Below, in pieces: positions 25,206 to 34,239 of a stretch of 62,937 nucleotides of DNA. Every line of letters starts with the position of its first letter. Position 1 is the first letter of the stretch. Under the pieces are notes generated by a model. The model was not told the DNA's origin and made no database searches. It saw only the letters and a list, made by a program, of their open reading frames with translations. Source of the stretch: an uncultured Anaerolineaceae bacterium (GTDB lineage: Bacteria; Chloroflexota; Anaerolineae; Anaerolineales; UBA4823); NCBI GenBank assembly GCA_964416175.1, contig CAYQDF010000007.1:1-62937 (forward strand), in the 5' to 3' direction. The position numbers and the translations under genes are program-made.

Positions 25206-25362
25206 ATGGTTTTTCAAGAAAGTTTGGTGCCCCTCTCTTTCTCCCATCCCCTCGCACCCGAACTTACCGGATGGCAATTGACGAGTGGGGCAGATTTAAA
25301 CGCCCTGTACTCCCATATTGGACCGATGTAAAGCGATTGAAAGGTCGAGCAGGAGTTTCCCA

Positions 25363-25371
25363 TGGTATATT
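25363..25371 (+). promoter_or_regulatory. extended -10 promoter candidate of the cyclase-STAND gene
   Basis: TGGTATATT, 55 nt upstream of ATG 25426. Confidence 0.45.
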
Positions 25372-25425
25372 GATTCTGTTCACCCGGCTTACTCATCCCG
25401 ATCAAAGCCGGGAAGAGGCCAGACG

Positions 25426-28400
25426 ATGCAGTCTGAATGCTTCAAATGCGGATTCACAAATCCTCCCGGCTTAAGATTCTGCGGCAACTGCGGCGCGGCG
25501 CTGAGCGGCGCGCCCGGACAGCTCAGAACCGACAGTACCAGCCTTAGACCACAGGTTTCTTCCCAATTAGAAAAAGGGAGCCTGACCGCAGGTGACGTGA
25601 AGTTGGAGGGTGAGCGGAGAAACGTCACGGTGCTGTTTGCGGACCTGTCTGACTATACTGTGCTGGCAGGGAAAATGGAGGATGAAGCGCTTTACGAAAT
25701 GCTGGGTCTGTTTCTCCGCATGCTGGTCGAAAAGGTCAACCTGTACGAAGGGACCGTGGATAAGATCATCGGGGATGGCGTCATGGCGCTTTTTGGCGTC
25801 CCGGCCGCTCAGGAGAATGCTCCGGAACGGGCAGTCCGTTCTGCAATGGATATGCTCTCCGGGCTTCAGGCGCTGAACCGGGACCTGAGAGCCCGGTTCG
25901 GCGAAGAACTGCTGATGCACGTTGGGATACACACCGGATCAGTCATCCTGGGCGGCGTGGAGACAAAATCCCTGGTGGACTACACTGCCATCGGGGATAC
26001 AGTGAACATCGCCCGCCGATTGCAGGAATCCGCCGCGCCGGGGACGATCCTGGTCAGCGACCGGGTGTTCAGAGCGACGAAATCCATTTTCAATTACAGC
26101 CATCTCCCTTCGCTCCGGGTGAAAGGCATCCCTCAACCGCTCGACACTTACCGGCTCGAAGGTTTTAAAGAACTGCCGTCGAAAAGAAGGGGGATCGAAG
26201 GGCTGTACTCGCCGATGATCGGCCGGAGGGATGAGCTGGGATACCTGCTGCAATCGGTCGCGGACCTGCGAAAAGACCGGCGCGGCCGTTTGATTGTCGT
26301 CACCGGGGAAGCCGGGATTGGAAAGAGCCGGTTGATCGAAGAATTCAAAGAACGGATAACGGGTTTGGATATAACCCTGCTCGAAGGACACAGTCTGACG
26401 TACCGCCGGTCTGCGTCATACTGGATGTTTCAGGACCTGGTGAGAAATATTCTCAAAGTCACATACAACACACCGAAAGCACAGATCAAAGAACGACTGG
26501 CAGCGAAGACCGTGGAGCTGTTCGGAGAATCGGATACGGATTCCCTGCCATTCTTGGAAAACCTGCTCTCTCTTGAGCTGGATGAATCGCGTGGCGCGCA
26601 GCGCCTTATGCTCCTCGAAGCCGAACAGCTCCGCCAGCACACATTCCTGGCGGTCCGCGATCTGCTTAAAATGGAAGCTCGGCGTAAGCCGTTGGTTGTG
26701 ATCCTGGAGGACCTGCATTGGGCGGATGAAGTCTCTCTTGACCTTCTCCGATTCCTGATCCAGGAGATAGACGACACCCCAATATTGTTGCTGAGTGTCT
26801 CACGACCCCTCGAAGAGGGACGCCTGGCAGCGATCGTTGACCTGGGCAGGAAACGCCTCGGCGATCGATGTTCGGTGCTGGAACTATCAGGATTGGACGA
26901 GGATCAGTGTGCGGAGCTGCTCGGACATTTATTAGGGACGGACGCATTGTCCAGTCGATTGAGAGGACCGATAGTTTCCAGGTCAGCTGGTATACCTTTC
27001 TATATAGAAGAAATCCTCCGCATGCTCATCGATCGGCAGCTGCTTTATCAGAGCGAGGGGCAGTGGCGCCTCGCGAACGATTTCGAAAGAGCGGGCCTGT
27101 CTATCCCGGAGACCTTGCAGGACCTGATGATGGCCCGGATCGATCGCCTCGATCCAGATCAGCGGCTGGTGCTCCAGATTGCTTCGGTGATAGGGAGGCA
27201 GTTCAACCTCGACCTGCTCGAATTAGCCCTGAAGAATTTTGAGATCAAACAACTGGATCTGGTGGTTGCCGGACTGGTCGAAAAAGCTTTCATCCTTCCC
27301 CTCTCCAGCGATGACCGTGAATACATCTTCCGCCACGTCCTGACCTCTGACGCCATTTACCGCACGCTGCTCCGGCGAGACCTGTCGAAGTTTCACACGC
27401 TGGTCGGAGAGGCGCTCGAATCATTGTACTCGGACGAACTGGAAAACCACGTCGAGATCCTTGCTTCGCATTTCTTGCGGTCATCGCGGCTCGATAAAGC
27501 TCTGCACTACCTGATCCTCGCCGGGGAGAAATCGGCCGGGGATTACGCCAATGATCAGGCAAACCGGCATTTCTCCGAAGCCAGGCATCTGCTTTCCCTG
27601 GTCGAACACACTCCGGAGCAAGCCCTGCGCGTCCTGGTTGGCCTGGGAGATGTGTTCACTTTTACTGGAGAATACGAAGCGGCGCGAGAGAGCTACCGTG
27701 AAGCTTTGCAGGTGATCGAGTCAACGCAGCCGTTCGCAGATGTGAAGAGGCACAGCGCAGTCCACCGCAAGATTGGGACGACCTATGAGCGCCAGGGTGA
27801 TTTTGACCGGGCGCTCGAGCACCTCGTGGAAGCGAGCAAAGCGCTGGGGAAAACAGCCTTCCTCGCTCCTGGTTCAAAAGCAGAAATATTGAATGATCTG
27901 GGATGGATCTACTTCCTGCGCGGCAATTTCGAAGAAGCGCAGAAAAACCTGATGATCGGATTAAGCCTCGTCGAGGGGACCAGCGATTATAGAATCGTTG
28001 CCTCTATCCACAATCGCCTGGGAGCTGTGGCCTACCAGAAGCGGGATTACGAGGAGGCTGCCAGCCACGTCCGGAAGAGTCTGGCGCTCCGGGAAATGAT
28101 TGGAGATCTGTCCGGGGTGGCGCGCCTTTACAACAATTTAGGCCTGTTGAGCCTGATGGCGGGGGATCTGCGCGAAGCGGAAGAGAATTTCCACAGGAGC
28201 AGCGAACTCCTGGAGAAGCTGGGAGATGCTGAAGGGATCGCCCTCACGAACATCAATATCGGCCTGGTGAAATGCGATCGGGGTCATTTCGAAGCAGCCA
28301 GGATGTTCTTGGAGAAAGCGCGGGCGGTGGCTGACCAGATTGGCCACCGGTTCTATCTGGCCCTCTCCAGCCTGTATTTAGGGCGATTGAATACGTGTTC

Positions 28401-28923
28401 GCAGCAATATGCGGAAGCAGCCAGGTTGTTGAGCGCCAGCCTGGCCCTCTTCGACGAACTCGGTGCACTGGATCACCGAATTGACGGGATGGGATACCTG
28501 GCTGAGAACTGCCTCGCATGGGGAGACTCTGAAGGCGCCCTCCGGTGGAGTCAGACCATGACGGAGGCCATCGCAAACGCTCAAGGGGTGTCTTCGATCA
28601 CCTCCCTCCAAAAAGGACGCCTGCTCCGTACCCAGGGGCGGATCGCTCGTCTCAGGAGAGATTATGAGCTGGCTCAACAGCTCCTTACTGAAGCTTTCGA
28701 GATGTTCCATACTTCCAAGGAGAAACTCGAATCTGGACGGACGTTCTATGAATTGGGGCTTCTGGCGAGAGACCAGGGGAAGCACCATCAATCTCAGCAG
28801 ATGTTGCTTGAAGCCCGTCTGCTGTTCCAGGAGATCGGCGCGGAACACGACCTGAGTATCACCGAGGAGGCGCTCAACACGCCAGCTCTGGCAGGCAGCT
28901 CTGCTGTTTACAAAGCTGCGTAG
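25426..28923 (+). CDS. zinc-ribbon / class III adenylate-guanylate cyclase / AAA(STAND) NTPase / TPR multidomain protein
   Basis: Start at ATG 25426 (MQSECFKCG...FCGNCGAAL). Cyclase core VTVLFADLSDYT...KIIGDGVMALFG. Walker A GEAGIGKSRL. Long TPR C-terminus. Confidence 0.85.
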   Translation: MQSECFKCGFTNPPGLRFCGNCGAALSGAPGQLRTDSTSLRPQVSSQLEKGSLTAGDVKLEGERRNVTVLFADLSDYTVLAGKMEDEALYEMLGLFLRMLVEKVNLYEGTVDKIIGDGVMALFGVPAAQENAPERAVRSAMDMLSGLQALNRDLRARFGEELLMHVGIHTGSVILGGVETKSLVDYTAIGDTVNIARRLQESAAPGTILVSDRVFRATKSIFNYSHLPSLRVKGIPQPLDTYRLEGFKELPSKRRGIEGLYSPMIGRRDELGYLLQSVADLRKDRRGRLIVVTGEAGIGKSRLIEEFKERITGLDITLLEGHSLTYRRSASYWMFQDLVRNILKVTYNTPKAQIKERLAAKTVELFGESDTDSLPFLENLLSLELDESRGAQRLMLLEAEQLRQHTFLAVRDLLKMEARRKPLVVILEDLHWADEVSLDLLRFLIQEIDDTPILLLSVSRPLEEGRLAAIVDLGRKRLGDRCSVLELSGLDEDQCAELLGHLLGTDALSSRLRGPIVSRSAGIPFYIEEILRMLIDRQLLYQSEGQWRLANDFERAGLSIPETLQDLMMARIDRLDPDQRLVLQIASVIGRQFNLDLLELALKNFEIKQLDLVVAGLVEKAFILPLSSDDREYIFRHVLTSDAIYRTLLRRDLSKFHTLVGEALESLYSDELENHVEILASHFLRSSRLDKALHYLILAGEKSAGDYANDQANRHFSEARHLLSLVEHTPEQALRVLVGLGDVFTFTGEYEAARESYREALQVIESTQPFADVKRHSAVHRKIGTTYERQGDFDRALEHLVEASKALGKTAFLAPGSKAEILNDLGWIYFLRGNFEEAQKNLMIGLSLVEGTSDYRIVASIHNRLGAVAYQKRDYEEAASHVRKSLALREMIGDLSGVARLYNNLGLLSLMAGDLREAEENFHRSSELLEKLGDAEGIALTNINIGLVKCDRGHFEAARMFLEKARAVADQIGHRFYLALSSLYLGRLNTCSQQYAEAARLLSASLALFDELGALDHRIDGMGYLAENCLAWGDSEGALRWSQTMTEAIANAQGVSSITSLQKGRLLRTQGRIARLRRDYELAQQLLTEAFEMFHTSKEKLESGRTFYELGLLARDQGKHHQSQQMLLEARLLFQEIGAEHDLSITEEALNTPALAGSSAVYKAA

Positions 28924-29072: not shown

Positions 29073-30899
29073 TCACCCGTCGAAATTGTTCCAGTTCCCC
29101 ACCCAGGGGATGCTGCTCGACCAGGCGCCAAATTCATCTTGCCAGGTAGTGAACTTCTCAGCGAAATCGGCATCTCCGTAAGAACCCGCCCAGGCCCCGT
29201 AACCGCCGGCCCAGGCGCCGTAGCCGCCCGCCCAGGCGCCGTAGCCGCCCGCCCAGACGCCGTAACCCCCAGCCCAGGCGCCGTAGCCCCCGGCCCAGGC
29301 GTCGTAACCCCCGGCCCAGGCTCCATAGCCGCCCGCCCAGGCTCCATCGCCGCCCGCCCAGGCTCCATAACCGCCGGCCCAGGCTCCAGAACCGCCGGCC
29401 CAGGCCCCGTAACCGCCGGCCCAGGCCCCGTAGCCCCCAGCCCAGGCTCCGTAGCCCCCGGCCCAGCTCTCAAAGTCCCCGCGGAGCCTGAACTCACCGG
29501 TCGTTGGGTCGTAATAGGAATACCCCTCGAAGTGCTGCGCCCCGGAAAGGTCTGATCGTACGTCCAGGCCAGCGTTTGCGGCGCCGGCAATATCCGCGTA
29601 AACAGCATCGGGAGCATTGACACGCCCTGATCCTTGCTGCCACATACTGTAGAGCGCATTGGTCGATCCCAGGTCGATCCATGGGAAGGCGGTGACCTGG
29701 AGACGGTGTTTGATTTCGTCTGGGGTGAGGTCAGGGTTCTGCGACAGGGTGAGCGCGGCGAGCCCGGTCACGACCGCCGCGGCCTGGGATGTCCCTGCCA
29801 TCCAGAGGTATTGGCCCGGGTACCGGTTCTCGGCATGTTCTCGGGCGATCTTGCTCTGGCTCAGCATCGTGGATACCATATGCGCCCCCGGAGCGACCAC
29901 ATCCGGCTTGACGAATCCGTCCAGAGTTGGACCGGCTGCGGAAAATGGCGTGATGTAATCATCGCTCCAATCATTGGGAGTGTAGTTGTCTGTGAATGCG
30001 CCTACCGTGATGACGTACGGGTTGTTTCCTGGAACGCCGATGCTCATCGCTCCCGGACCTGTGTTGCCAGCTGCCACCACGACCGTCAGCCCCTGCGCCC
30101 ATGCCTGCATGACTGCCTGGTTCAGGGGGTCTGCCCAATAGGGAGACTGCACAGTGGCGACGAGGGACATGTTAATGACATCGATTCCGTACCTGTCTTT
30201 GTTCTCGATCACCCACTGGATGCCTTTGATCACCTGTTCGTAGGTTCCATAGCCGTCGGCGTTCAACACCCGCACCCCGACGAGGTCGACGCCTGGCGCG
30301 ACGCCATTCCATTCACCATCCGCGCCGACCTGGGAATTGGCGATGATCCCTGTGATGTGTGTTCCGTGTCCATTCGGGTCGTGGGGTGAGCGCTTCCGGT
30401 CGACGATATCTATCCAGCCAATGATCCGGTTCTTCTGCTTTCCATCGATCCCCTTGACGAGTCCCGGGTGCCTGGCGATGCCTGTATCGATGACAGCCAC
30501 GGTCACCCCCTGCCCGGTTGCCCCGCGCTCCCAGGCGACGTCAGCCCCGATGACATCGGGGTAGTCTGTGCTGGGTAACCTGGACTGCTTCCCTTCGCCG
30601 GCTGCACGGACGGGCGCGTTTGGGACGGCAGAGAGGCTGCCGGCAGCTTGAGAAAGATCCGGGATTGCGCTGACGGGCACGACCGCAGCCACGCCGTTGA
30701 TGATGTCTAACCGCGAGGTGACGCGCCCTCCGTGAGACAGGACCCAATTCTCGGCAGTCTGCACGTCAGCCCCCTGGATGATGAGGGAGGCAACCCGATG
30801 GTCGACTCGTGAGGGAACCAGAGGCAGCGCAGCCAGCAGCATGATCGCTGCCAGCACAGTGCTCAACCGGTCAATCCGCAAGAACGATTTTGCGCTCAT
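29073..30899 (-). CDS. secreted subtilisin-like (S8) serine protease with C-terminal (WAGGYGA)14 repeat region
   Basis: Signal peptide. Catalytic D (VAVIDTGI), H (HGTHITG) and S (GTSQAAA). 14 tandem heptads near the C-terminus. Confidence 0.9.
   Translation of the reverse strand: MSAKSFLRIDRLSTVLAAIMLLAALPLVPSRVDHRVASLIIQGADVQTAENWVLSHGGRVTSRLDIINGVAAVVPVSAIPDLSQAAGSLSAVPNAPVRAAGEGKQSRLPSTDYPDVIGADVAWERGATGQGVTVAVIDTGIARHPGLVKGIDGKQKNRIIGWIDIVDRKRSPHDPNGHGTHITGIIANSQVGADGEWNGVAPGVDLVGVRVLNADGYGTYEQVIKGIQWVIENKDRYGIDVINMSLVATVQSPYWADPLNQAVMQAWAQGLTVVVAAGNTGPGAMSIGVPGNNPYVITVGAFTDNYTPNDWSDDYITPFSAAGPTLDGFVKPDVVAPGAHMVSTMLSQSKIAREHAENRYPGQYLWMAGTSQAAAVVTGLAALTLSQNPDLTPDEIKHRLQVTAFPWIDLGSTNALYSMWQQGSGRVNAPDAVYADIAGAANAGLDVRSDLSGAQHFEGYSYYDPTTGEFRLRGDFESWAGGYGAWAGGYGAWAGGYGAWAGGSGAWAGGYGAWAGGDGAWAGGYGAWAGGYDAWAGGYGAWAGGYGVWAGGYGAWAGGYGAWAGGYGAWAGSYGDADFAEKFTTWQDEFGAWSSSIPWVGNWNNFDG
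29172..29465. repeat. 14 x 21-bp in-frame tandem repeat
   Basis: Unit ccaggc(g/c)ccgta(g/a)cc(g/c)cc(c/g)g(c/g) on the plus strand encodes WAGGYGA on the minus strand. Units differ by 0-3 nt. Confidence 0.95.
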
Positions 30900-30938
30900 A
30901 TGTTCACTCCTTCGCGAGCAATCCGGCTAATGAGCGAC

Positions 30939-30962
30939 AAAGGCCTGGGAAAACCAGGCCTT
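30939..30962 (-). terminator. expression-platform hairpin (possible attenuator) downstream of the candidate aptamer
   Basis: AAGGCCUGG-UUUUC-CCAGGCCUU followed by UGU. Its 5' arm is also complementary to CCAGGCC at the aptamer 3' end (30998-31004). The U-tract is weak. Confidence 0.4.
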
Positions 30963-30989
30963 CGATGCGAAGTTAAGCGAACATCGTTG

Positions 30990-31085
30990 ATCTCGGCGGC
31001 CTGGCGATCATAACCATCTTGGGATGGTCTTAGACCCATGGCTTTGCGCCCCCGGTTTTCACCGGGTTAGCCTTTTTCGGATCTC
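30990..31085 (-). ncRNA. candidate c-di-GMP-I (GEMM-I, tetraloop/receptor type) riboswitch aptamer in the S8 protease leader
   Basis: Minus-strand read, in order: AAAAAGGCUAA; CCCGGU-GAAA-ACCGGG hairpin; GGCGCAAAGCC; hairpin ACCAUC-CCAA-GAUGGU flanked by UCUAAG...UAUGA (11-nt receptor-like). No covariance model was run. Confidence 0.5.
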
Positions 31086-31091
31086 GAACTC

Positions 31092-31121
31092 ATTTTAGCA
31101 TAGTACTTAAGGGGGAGTCAA
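31092..31121 (-). promoter_or_regulatory. sigma70-type promoter of the S8 protease
   Basis: TTGACT (31116-31121) - 18 nt - TAAAAT (31092-31097) on the minus strand. An AT-rich UP-like tract lies at 31122-31175. Confidence 0.6.
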
Positions 31122-31301
31122 CCAGTATAGCTGACATTCTTGTTAGTTCATTACCTGTTTATTACATATTTCTTACTTACGTCCCGGGTCGATTTGACAC
31201 AATGACCAGCCGGTGAAGCATGGTCGAGAAGCCAGCAGCTTTGAGCTCGCATGACGCAGGACTTGTATGAGCATAGTCACCCCCACAGGTGATGAATTGC
31301 A

Positions 31302-31331
31302 TTGTGAGAATAACCCCCGGAGTGGTAAACT
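31302..31331 (+). promoter_or_regulatory. promoter candidate of ppdK
   Basis: TTGTGA - 18 nt (ending TGG) - TAAACT. Would give a leader of about 135 nt. Confidence 0.45.
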
Positions 31332-31470
31332 ATACCCCTGGTATCCGGGGTACGCTCCGAAAAATAACCCTTGGGTTGAGAATGTGATGGATCGTGACGA
31401 ACAAAATACCGCGTGGAGATCATCTGCGCAGGTTTTTAACACCATTTTCCTGTGAGTCTAGGAGGTCGTT

Positions 31471-34239
31471 ATGTCTGAAAAGAAATGGGTTTATCTATTT
31501 AGCGAGGTGGAGGAGGCAGAGCGAGCAGTTGGAGGGAACTGGGACGACGTGCGGGCGCTGTTAGGCGGGAAAGGTTCTGGCCTGGCAGACATGACTCGCG
31601 CCGGCGTTCCGGTGCCCCCTGGTTTCACCGTCACGACTGAGGCCTGCAATGCCTACCTGGAAGCGGGTCAGAAATTTCCCCCGGGGATGTGGGAACAGGA
31701 ATTGGAGGCATTGCGCAAGATCGAACAGGCTACCGGGAAGAAGTTCGGTGACCCGCGCAATCCACTACTGGTCTCTTGCCGGTCGGGCGCCAAATTCTCC
31801 ATGCCGGGCATGATGGACACGGTGCTGAACATCGGTATGAACGAGGAAACAGCAGCCGGCATGGTCAAGCTGACAGGCGATGAGCGATTTGTTTACGATG
31901 CTTACCGCCGCCTGGTTGAGATGTTCGGCGAAGTCGTCCTTGGGATCCCGGATGAGGCTTTTGAAGGACCGCTCCACGATTACAAGGCACAGAAAGGTGT
32001 TCAGACCGATCCTGAGCTGACTGCAGAAGACTGGAAGCACCTTGTCGAGACGTTCAAGAAAGTCGTTCGGGACCAGAAAGGGTTTGACTTCCCCCAGGAC
32101 CCGTACGAACAGCTTCGCCTCGCTACGGAAGCAGTGTTCAGATCCTGGAACGGAAAGCGCGCGGTGGATTACCGCAACGCGGCTGGGATACCGCACAACC
32201 TGGGTACAGCCGTCAATATTCAGACCATGGTGTTCGGGAACATGGGTTGGGATTCTGGCACGGGGGTGGCGTTCACCCGCGATCCTGCCACCGGCGAGAA
32301 AGAGATGTACGGCGATTACTTGATGAATGCCCAGGGGGAAGATGTGGTCGCCGGGATTCGCAACACGCAGAAAATCGCCCACCTCAAGGAAGAGATGCCG
32401 GAGGTATACCAGCAGTTCCTGGAGATCTGCGACAGGCTGGAGCGCCACTACCGGGATATGCAGGATGTCGAGTTCACCATCGAAAAAGGGAAGCTCTGGA
32501 TGCTCCAAACCAGGACCGGCAAGCGGACCGCGAAGGCAGCCGTCAAGATCGCGGTCGATATGGCTGACGAGGGGCTGATAACGAAGGAAGAGGCGCTGCT
32601 CCGGGTCCGCTCTGATGACGTGGACACGCTTCTTCACCCGCAATTTGATCTGCGGGCGAAGCAGGCGGCCCAGCAAGAAGGCAAGTTGTATGCCAGCGGC
32701 GTGAACGCTTCGCCCGGCGCGGCCGTCGGTCAGGTCTATTTCGATGCGGATACGTCGGAGCGCATGGCGAAGGAATCTGGTCAGGAGGTCATCATGGTGC
32801 GCCCGTTTACCAAGCCGGATGACGTGCATGGGATGCTGGCAGCCAAGGGCATCCTCACCAGTGAAGGGGGCGCTACTTCCCACGCAGCAGTCGTCGCCCG
32901 TCAGTTCGGGGTGCCGTGCGTGGTCGGCGCTGCGATGATCCGGATCGACCTGGAAAGACGACAGATGTCGGTCGACGGGAAGATCGTCAGAGAGGGCGAC
33001 TGGATTTCGGTCGACGGGACGAGCGGCGAGGTGTTTCTGGGAAAGATCCCGACCATCGCGCCGTCGCTCGAAGAGCAGACTGACCTGCTGACCTTACTTG
33101 AATGGGCAGATGAGATATGCGCAACCCCAGGCATCCGCAAAGCCCCTCCTGGCTGGCCGACCACCGGGCTGCAAGTCTGGGCGAACGCGGACTACCCGGC
33201 AGATGCCCGTCGAGCCAGGTCTTACGGTGCAGTTGGGATCGGGCTCTGCAGGACCGAGCACATGTTCTTCGAACCGGAACGGTTGCCCGTCGTCCAGCGC
33301 ATGATCCTGGCAGAAAGTTCTGCGGACCGCCGGGCTGCTTTGAATGAGCTGCTCCCCCACCAGCGGTCCGATTTTGAAGGCCTGTTCGAGGCGATGGACG
33401 GCTACCCGGTGATCATCCGCCTGATCGACCCGCCTCTTCACGAGTTCTTGCCATCGGAGGAATCTCTGCTTGAGGAAGTCATCACCATGCGGGTGAGGGG
33501 CGAAACGGAGGGGCTTGCTGAAAAGGAAAACCTGCTCCGCAAAGTCCAGAGCATGCACGAAAGCAACCCGATGATGGGGCTGCGCGGCATCCGCCTGAGC
33601 ATCGTCATGCCGGAGATCGTTGAGATGCAGGTGCGGGCGATCTTCGAAGCAGCAGCCAATGTCACCCTGCGCGGCGTTCACGCCAAGCCGGAGGTGATGA
33701 TTCCGCTCACCGGCACCGTCAATGAACTCAATGTCATCCAGCCGCGATTGGTCGAGATCGCCCGGCAGGTCATGCAGGAAAAGGGAGTGGATTTCCCATA
33801 TAAATTTGGGACGATGATCGAGATCCCGCGCGCGGCGCTCACCGCCGAGGAGATCGCCGAAGTGGCGGAATTCTTCTCCTTTGGCACGAACGATCTGACC
33901 CAGATGACGTATGGATACAGCCGGGATGACGCGGAGCGGAATTTCCTGCTCAAGTACGTCGAAGATGGAATCCTGCCGAAGAACCCCTTCCAAACCATCG
34001 ATCGCGAGGGCGTTGGACGATTAATGAAGATGTGCGTCGAGGAGGGGCGCAGCTCGCGGATCGACCTCGAGGTGGGTATCTGCGGCGAGCACGGCGGCGA
34101 CCCCGAATCCATCGAATTCTGCCACACGATCGGGCAGAACTACGTGAGCTGTTCGCCGTTCCGGGTGCCGATCGCCCGTCTCTCAGCTGCGCACGCCGCG
34201 TTGAAACACCAGGGCGTTTCGATACTGGAAGATAAATAA
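31471..34239 (+). CDS. ppdK: pyruvate, phosphate dikinase
   Basis: 922 aa. N-terminal ATP-grasp (GGKGSGLADM), phospho-His domain (GGATSHAAVVAR), and PEP-utilising C-terminus (GICGEHGGDP). Confidence 0.95.
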   Translation: MSEKKWVYLFSEVEEAERAVGGNWDDVRALLGGKGSGLADMTRAGVPVPPGFTVTTEACNAYLEAGQKFPPGMWEQELEALRKIEQATGKKFGDPRNPLLVSCRSGAKFSMPGMMDTVLNIGMNEETAAGMVKLTGDERFVYDAYRRLVEMFGEVVLGIPDEAFEGPLHDYKAQKGVQTDPELTAEDWKHLVETFKKVVRDQKGFDFPQDPYEQLRLATEAVFRSWNGKRAVDYRNAAGIPHNLGTAVNIQTMVFGNMGWDSGTGVAFTRDPATGEKEMYGDYLMNAQGEDVVAGIRNTQKIAHLKEEMPEVYQQFLEICDRLERHYRDMQDVEFTIEKGKLWMLQTRTGKRTAKAAVKIAVDMADEGLITKEEALLRVRSDDVDTLLHPQFDLRAKQAAQQEGKLYASGVNASPGAAVGQVYFDADTSERMAKESGQEVIMVRPFTKPDDVHGMLAAKGILTSEGGATSHAAVVARQFGVPCVVGAAMIRIDLERRQMSVDGKIVREGDWISVDGTSGEVFLGKIPTIAPSLEEQTDLLTLLEWADEICATPGIRKAPPGWPTTGLQVWANADYPADARRARSYGAVGIGLCRTEHMFFEPERLPVVQRMILAESSADRRAALNELLPHQRSDFEGLFEAMDGYPVIIRLIDPPLHEFLPSEESLLEEVITMRVRGETEGLAEKENLLRKVQSMHESNPMMGLRGIRLSIVMPEIVEMQVRAIFEAAANVTLRGVHAKPEVMIPLTGTVNELNVIQPRLVEIARQVMQEKGVDFPYKFGTMIEIPRAALTAEEIAEVAEFFSFGTNDLTQMTYGYSRDDAERNFLLKYVEDGILPKNPFQTIDREGVGRLMKMCVEEGRSSRIDLEVGICGEHGGDPESIEFCHTIGQNYVSCSPFRVPIARLSAAHAALKHQGVSILEDK

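Follow-up and report, generated by a model that had tools for sequence, protein, structure and literature searches.

A predicted class-I c-di-GMP riboswitch with a putative OFF-switch platform in the leader of a subtilase gene from an uncultured Anaerolineaceae bacterium

The leader of a protease gene, carried by a stretch of 62,937 nucleotides of DNA (hereafter, the window) from an uncultured Anaerolineaceae bacterium of the Chloroflexota (assembly GCA_964416175.1, contig CAYQDF010000007.1, positions 1 to 62,937), is the subject of the present analysis. Judged from its sequence, the segment 30989-31083 of this leader is a canonical aptamer of the class-I riboswitches for cyclic di-GMP (c-di-GMP), and neither the c-di-GMP-I-GGC variant, as its best Rfam match would have it, nor a sensor of 3'3'-cyclic GMP-AMP (3'3'-cGAMP); together with the expression platform that follows, it would constitute an OFF switch lowering the protease when the signal is high, a reading to which we give a probability of about 0.65. 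All the elements of the leader lie on the minus strand, and positions written in descending order follow the RNA from 5' to 3'.

The identity of the aptamer rests on covariance models, on covariation and on the ligand-contacting bases. In a scan of the whole window with Rfam, the only match at or above the gathering score was that of RF03167 (c-di-GMP-I-GGC) at 30991-31081, with 68.7 bits (gathering score 59) and an E-value of 3.7e-14 over the whole window. When P1 was trimmed, so that clan competition no longer masked it, RF01051 (c-di-GMP-I) aligned to 30996-31076, receptor columns included, and reached 60.6 bits, the cut-off being 35; a cmscan of the leader with an E-value threshold still masked RF01051. 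Both models being above their gathering scores, the GEMM-I aptamer recognized by eye in a first-pass annotation of the DNA is upheld by the very check then proposed for it, namely the Rfam c-di-GMP-I model on the minus strand. Below threshold, Rfam also matched mir-9412, cHP and rydB to parts of the leader (E about 3-7), and these were set aside as chance.

The three helices of the class are readily traced. In P1, GAUCCG (31083-31078) pairs with CG-A-GAUC (30995-30989) around a bulged A30993, like A95 of the Vc2 aptamer; P2 (31071-31046) comprises the stem-loop CCCGGU-GAAA-ACCGGG (31066-31051, read from the sequence), with its GAAA tetraloop at 31060-31057; P3 (31042-30998) carries the tetraloop receptor, the strands of which, UCUAAG (31034-31029) and UAUGA (31012-31008), align with CUAAg and uAuGa in the RF01051 model, and is capped by the hairpin ACCAUC-CCAA-GAUGGU (31028-31013, likewise read from the sequence). 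The stretches AAAAAGGCUAA and GGCGCAAAGCC are both present. The column alignment confirms the earlier reading of tetraloop and receptor, including the replacement of CC:GG by UC:GA, and the sequence elements then listed were all found on this strand, within 1 nt of where they had been placed.

Orthologues of the protease, 54-86% identical to it, occur in metagenome-assembled genomes and metagenomes of Chloroflexota, mostly labelled Anaerolineae or Anaerolineales, and at 22 other orthologue loci a class-I aptamer occupies the same place in the leader (19 found by Rfam, 3 read directly). On an alignment of 18 distinct leaders, 92.9% of the cells of P2 and P3 are paired and 14 of the 24 pairs are altered on both sides, values reached by none of 500 shuffles; partner columns that had been slid out of register were 17-43% paired. 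The covariation in orthologous leaders that the first-pass annotation had asked for thus supports both helices, and the compensatory changes, the covariance-model score and the GNRA loop with its receptor all assign the aptamer to c-di-GMP-I. The leaders of P0004 (73% identity) and P0006 (68%) lie outside the comparison, and in four further loci (L005, L007, L009 and L013; 56-65% identity) no c-di-GMP aptamer reached the Rfam gathering scores within 3 kb upstream; the riboswitch has been either lost in these lineages or never gained by them.

As to the ligand, the alignment to both models places the equivalent of Vc2 G20 at G31072, while comparison of GCGCAAAGC in the window with ACGCGAAgC in RF03167 and ACGCAAAgC in RF01051 places that of A47 at A31045, and the model alignment that of C92 at C30996. 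All three are invariant in the 18 leaders, as are C31048 and G31005, the equivalents of Vc2 C44 and G83, whose interhelical pairing is predicted from the presence of both bases. In Vc2, G20 recognises the G-alpha of the ligand (PMC6140456), C92 forms a Watson-Crick pair with the G-beta (PMC4744006, PMC6140456), A47 stacks or intercalates between both ligand guanines (PMC4744006, PMC3764141), and the C44-G83 pair keeps P2 and P3 parallel (PMC3764141, PMC4744006). With canonical bases at all five positions (G20, A47, C92, C44 and G83), c-di-GMP rather than 3'3'-cGAMP is the expected ligand. The pair A49-U90 of the model, outermost in P3 (31043/30998; alignment columns 42/91), is replaced by an A/C mismatch in 15 of the 18 leaders, that of the window included, which would fit the role of A49 as the junction A-minor nucleotide seen in the crystal structure (PMC3764141) rather than as a paired base.

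Two other identities have been considered for the aptamer. A 3'3'-cGAMP (GEMM-Ib) riboswitch has an identical fold, and the first-pass annotation, unable to place position 20, had left this specificity possible; cGAMP riboswitches, however, carry an A at position 20 (PMC6140456), where the window (31072) and all 18 leaders carry G, with C at position 92 (30996), and wild-type Vc2, which has G20, binds cGAMP at about 10 uM compared with a picomolar affinity for c-di-GMP, a difference of several orders of magnitude (PMC6140456). The matter is thereby settled against cGAMP, and a GEMM-Ib riboswitch at this place is hardly credible. The orphan variant c-di-GMP-I-GGC, with an altered ligand, has in its favour that RF03167 is the best Rfam match, over its gathering score, and that eight related leaders (L032, L033, L035, L039, L040, L041, L044 and L061) are labelled likewise. 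The consensus lines of RF03167 and RF01051, from whose comparison the variant-defining column (G at the equivalent of Vc2 A47) was deduced, nonetheless differ in two respects: ACGC-G-AAgC in the former against ACGC-A-AAgC in the latter, and receptor columns that are missing from the former. In the discriminating column the window and all 18 aligned leaders have A, the eight further leaders labelled RF03167, wherever their sequence was read, have A47 and a tetraloop receptor as well, and the receptor is present in the window; because the defining G is absent (A31045), the GGC label is an artefact. RF01051 is itself far over its cut-off, and RF03167 is ahead by calibration only: 68.7 bits correspond to an E-value of 3.7e-14 in RF03167, 76 bits to 5.8e-13 in RF01051, and it is because of this more generous calibration that RF03167 wins the clan competition; P1 is modelled as paired in RF03167 and not in RF01051. 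Taken together, these points make the GGC variant extremely improbable.

The expression platform shares a strand with the aptamer. At the base of P3, the 3' strand is a switching box, GCCAGGCC (30998-31005), whose core CCAGGCC (31004-30998) consists of the same letters as the 3' arm of a downstream switch hairpin, CGAAGGCCUGG-UUUUC-CCAGGCCUUUG (30938-30964), homologous to the intrinsic terminators of relatives; the core of this hairpin, AAGGCCUGG-UUUUC-CCAGGCCUU, is read here at 30962-30940 (30939-30962 in the first-pass annotation). Owing to this common core, GCCAGGCC can compete for the 5' arm GGCCUGGU (30960-30953), to which it is complementary over 8 bp (shuffle p = 0.009). An automated test recovers the same arrangement of box and 5' arm in at least 12 of 18 leaders, and inspection by eye in about 15; box and arm covary, GCCAGGUC facing GACCUGGC in L006 and CCAAGC facing GCUUGG in L012. 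The pairing of CCAGGCC with the hairpin 5' arm, and the mutually exclusive folds that had been deduced from it, thus have comparative support, and the platform is of the mutually exclusive type sought for a c-di-GMP-I riboswitch. The predicted stability of the hairpin GGCCUGG-UUUUC-CCAGGCC is -12.8 kcal/mol, and that of the extended stem -18.5 kcal/mol. Relative to the window, L032 shows 0 substitutions over the 27 nt of the hairpin, loop included, but 15 over the 43 nt of the flanking spacers (Fisher p = 2.4e-4); identical despite spacers that have diverged by about 35%, the switch hairpin is still under selection.

The direction of the switch is indicated by the relatives. The hairpins of 19 leaders were scored with a d'Aubenton-Carafa-type discriminant d; the mismatched terminators of L002, L004, L006, L010 and L012 were read by eye, and all the leaders were then scored by the discriminant. 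The values of d range from -43 to +53 among the relatives, and clear terminators (d > 15) with a good U-tract are present in 11 of the 19 leaders, including that of L065, a syntenic outgroup which has the promoter of the window. Since the hairpin is a clear intrinsic terminator in so many of the leaders, an OFF switch is implied, and the ancestral design would be the usual one, in which the ligand locks P3, the terminator forms and transcription ends there. The ligand-controlled attenuator of the first-pass annotation is accordingly well founded as far as the relatives are concerned; in the window the hairpin is without a good U-tract, and its read-out may be either termination or a translational block.

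Transcription of the leader would start from a sigma-70-type promoter at 31092-31121, made up of the -35 element TTGACT (31121-31116), an 18-nt spacer and the -10 element TAAAAT (31097-31092), the latter being part of an extended -10, TGcTAAAAT (31100-31092, with TG at 31100-31099). In a consensus scan this promoter, with 10 of 12 matches plus the TG, was the sole sigma-70-like site in 30500-31600; with 0.7 sites to be expected by chance, this is not significant in itself. The site is, however, conserved: L032, L063 and L064 carry the block from -35 to -10 unchanged, and L065, a 68%-identical outgroup with spacers that are otherwise diverged, has one base different. An extended -10, there TGCTAnAAT, also directly precedes the aptamer in the leaders L039, L040, L044 and L061. 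With a transcription start predicted near 31085, the leader extends for about 186 nt up to the protease ATG at 30899, so that both the near-consensus promoter TTGACT-18-TAAAAT and the leader of about 185 nt first read on this strand are recovered. The fold of the leader has a z-score of -4.35 relative to dinucleotide shuffles.

Between aptamer and hairpin, the window has a further, lineage-specific element, an anti-Shine-Dalgarno strand AUGUUCGCUU-aa-CUUCGC (30967-30984). In the minimum-free-energy fold this strand pairs with GCGAAG-GAGUGAACAU (30915-30900), which makes up, with the AUG at 30899-30897, the translation start region (30897-30915) and includes the Shine-Dalgarno sequence GAAGGAG (30913-30907, read from the sequence). 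The hairpin is enclosed by the resulting 16-bp helix (30984-30967 with 30915-30900), which sequesters the Shine-Dalgarno sequence together with the bases that follow as far as the AUG; the duplex has an energy of -22.4 kcal/mol, compared with -13.5 +/- 3.0 kcal/mol for shuffles (p = 0.006).

From these elements a mechanism may be proposed. The conserved promoter (31121-31092) would drive transcription of the leader, and the aptamer (30989-31083) would bind c-di-GMP through G20, A47 and C92 (31072, 31045 and 30996). With the ligand bound, GCCAGGCC (31005-30998) would be held in P3, leaving the hairpin 30964-30938 free to form; as this hairpin is an intrinsic terminator in most orthologous leaders, high c-di-GMP would mean protease off. 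In the absence of the ligand, GCCAGGCC would act as an antiterminator by pairing with GGCCUGGU, the 5' arm of the hairpin, and the messenger would be completed and translated. In the lineage of the window, where the U-tract is eroded, the OFF output would probably combine weak termination with an effect of the 16-bp helix, which would occlude the ribosome-binding site.

A number of observations weigh against this mechanism. In the internal loop of P2, the window, L032, L063 and L064 have U at the equivalent of Vc2 A23 (31069), a base that is highly conserved in class-I aptamers (PMC3764141), together with G at the equivalent of A43 (31049); as the outgroup L065 and most relatives keep A23 (with A43 or G43), the U23/G43 combination is, from the alignment, a derived change, which might form a U-G wobble and could affect affinity. 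The tail that follows the hairpin, UUUGUCGCU (30941-30933), is U-poor (5 U in 9); a simple terminator scan leaves the hairpin of the window uncalled, and its d of +1.9 is borderline. L032 and L064 (86% protein identity) share the tail UUCGCCGCU with d = -19.4, and because L032, the closest distinct relative, combines this score with the lack of an anti-Shine-Dalgarno helix, no one read-out mechanism accounts for both it and the window. Could the read-out then be purely translational in the lineage of the window, with the same aptamer and the same OFF logic, the hairpin nucleating the 16-bp helix and the antiterminator-like pairing preventing it? Besides the eroded U-tract and the stability of the duplex, this explanation has in its favour that the helix is kept in the near-identical strain L063, that the probability of the Shine-Dalgarno sequence being unpaired is 0.04-0.06 whenever the helix can form, and that in constrained folding of the window it goes from 0.06 with the hairpin to 0.45 with the antiterminator enforced; in L037, an independent leader devoid of a U-tract, the same topology gives 0.00 and 0.31 (p = 0.04). 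The latter shift in the window depends, however, on a folding algorithm that forbids a pseudoknot which, by a rough estimate of loop lengths, may be sterically possible, and when only the 5' arm of the hairpin is blocked the Shine-Dalgarno sequence stays buried (0.04 in both states), so that any coupling to the ligand is putative. The helix is moreover absent from L032 and L064 in spite of their eroded U-tract and identical hairpin; in L032, where the 18-nt block GCUCGCGAAGGAGUGAAC at the translation start is identical to that of the window, neither folding constraint has any effect on the accessibility of the Shine-Dalgarno sequence; and the spacer that holds the 5' strand of the helix evolves fast, being about 33% diverged, and shows no compensatory changes. 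A translational switch is not claimed here, because the helix is absent in L032 and L064, its spacer evolves fast and the Shine-Dalgarno sequence stays buried with the 5' arm blocked; a purely translational read-out appears to us rather unlikely. A related and equally tentative proposal, which we would put slightly higher but still regard as doubtful, is that the expression platform has been caught in turnover, with aptamer and hairpin fixed, the terminator (intact in L065) deprived of its U-tract, and a new 16-bp helix burying the Shine-Dalgarno sequence and the start codon; if this were true, the c-di-GMP decision would be read at translation instead of transcription, and L037 may have converted independently from a terminator to burial of the Shine-Dalgarno sequence.

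The opposite logic has also been weighed. In an ON switch, the 3' arm of the hairpin (CCUUUG in the window, CCUUCGC in L032) would pair, without ligand, with the Shine-Dalgarno region GCGAAGG, and c-di-GMP would re-form the hairpin, whose 5' arm CGAAGG would act as a Shine-Dalgarno mimic and set the Shine-Dalgarno sequence free. The 5' arm does contain the Shine-Dalgarno core, the 3' arm is complementary to both, such a switch would account for a conserved hairpin without U-tract in both the window and L032, and one class-I riboswitch of Clostridioides difficile is positively regulated (PMC6200980); against it, constrained folding gives no pairing between 3' arm and Shine-Dalgarno sequence, the freed arm pairing instead with the freed 5' strand of P3, the ligand-bound fold of the window has the Shine-Dalgarno sequence buried, and the homologous hairpins of relatives are clear terminators, which are OFF devices. 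An ON switch is, on balance, quite improbable. That the riboswitch might be a relic, its aptamer intact and its expression platform decayed by loss of the U-tract so that the protease is no longer regulated, would be in keeping with terminator scores that are borderline in the window and negative in L032, and with features for sequestration of the Shine-Dalgarno sequence that are inconsistent between the two close relatives; such decay is at odds with a hairpin and loop kept identical between diverged spacers, and with an aptamer in which window and L032 have only 4 differences in about 96 nt, and we regard it as very improbable. The reading preferred here thus remains that of a c-di-GMP-responsive OFF switch.

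The gene that would be regulated (29073-30899) encodes a subtilase of 608 amino acids (Peptidase_S8, Pfam PF00082, E 2.9e-55), named 'serine protease AprX' in the JGI annotation; the N-terminus of its translation resembles a signal peptide, in agreement with the secreted S8 protease of the first-pass annotation, secretion being predicted on this ground. The gene would be monocistronic, since the next gene downstream is convergent. A 21-nt tandem repeat (13.4 copies, 29185-29466, minus strand) encodes a C-terminal array of GAWAGGY heptads at residues ~478-572; the array varies in length, as the protein of a near-identical strain, P0001, has exactly two heptads fewer (594 amino acids, compared with 608), and most alignments of the closer orthologues stop at residue 488, just past the start of the array. 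The gene order, common to L063, L064 and L065, comprises pyruvate phosphate dikinase (31471-34239, plus strand), the riboswitch with the protease (29073-30899, minus strand) and a convergent gene (25318-28923, plus strand) for a protein of 1201 amino acids with an adenylate/guanylate cyclase domain, an AAA_16 ATPase domain, TPR repeats and a weak N-terminal zinc-ribbon match. Between the pyruvate phosphate dikinase gene and the riboswitch promoter, an open reading frame for 90 amino acids (31173-31445, minus strand) is without a match in Pfam, and L063-L065 have no called gene at the equivalent place; it is probably not a gene. Among the orthologous loci, L010/L048 (one contig present in two collections) has a leader that exceeds the others by about 200 nt. 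Between its aptamer and the start of the protease there may be a short upstream open reading frame that has a Shine-Dalgarno sequence of its own (GGAGGCAGCUAUGGGC...); a tRNA gene, encoded on the opposite strand, lies about 430 nt upstream of this aptamer.

The Chloroflexota of the Anaerolineae type are mostly uncultured bacteria, common in sediments and in wastewater sludge, and the present riboswitch adds a well-supported c-di-GMP effector to them. By analogy with ZmpI of C. difficile, the signal would be tied to a conserved secreted subtilase, with the protease off in the sessile state of high c-di-GMP. A more practical consequence concerns annotation, as copies of the RF03167 label wrongly imply an unknown ligand for the aptamer of the window and for at least eight relatives. 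The approximately 20 orthologous leaders, in which one aptamer is combined with terminators of varied quality, also offer a natural series for the study of expression-platform evolution. In the literature available for searching, c-di-GMP riboswitches of Chloroflexota were not the subject of any paper that was found, and on such riboswitches as protease off-switches there was nothing specific besides the zmpI gene of C. difficile.

The class, its logic and even its association with a protease gene have been described before, and the closest functional precedent is Cdi-1-12/zmpI: the class-I c-di-GMP riboswitches of C. difficile are OFF switches, and Cdi-1-12 lowers expression of the secreted-protease gene zmpI 62-fold at high c-di-GMP (PMC6200980). 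The two cases have in common a class-I aptamer placed directly before a single secreted protease gene and an OFF response, which in the window is predicted; they differ in that a zinc metalloprotease of Firmicutes is concerned there, and here an S8 serine subtilase of Chloroflexota, with an eroded U-tract. Another extended platform is that of Bc1 from Bacillus thuringiensis, a class-I riboswitch which is reported to have a long expression platform with dual regulation and two typical rho-independent terminators (PMC11218506); in both systems more than one structural element may shape the output, although the two terminators of Bc1 contrast with the one hairpin of weak U-tract and the Shine-Dalgarno-sequestering helix of the window. 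With RF03167 the window shares P1, J1/2 and P2 that are near the consensus of the model (in L040 almost letter for letter), and it departs from it in having A instead of G in the A47 column and a receptor that is not among the conserved columns of the model. With Vc2 and RF01051, finally, it shares the three-helix fold, the docking of the GAAA loop of P2 in the receptor of P3, the location in a 5' leader, the G20, A47 and C92 contacts, the C44-G83 pair and the bulged A in P1; unlike Vc2 it has U for the conserved A23, together with G43, and receptor closing pairs U-A and C-G in place of the C-G and C-G of the Vc2 type, it has an A/C mismatch for the A49-U90 pair of RF01051, and its switching strand is the 3' strand of P3, not that of P1.

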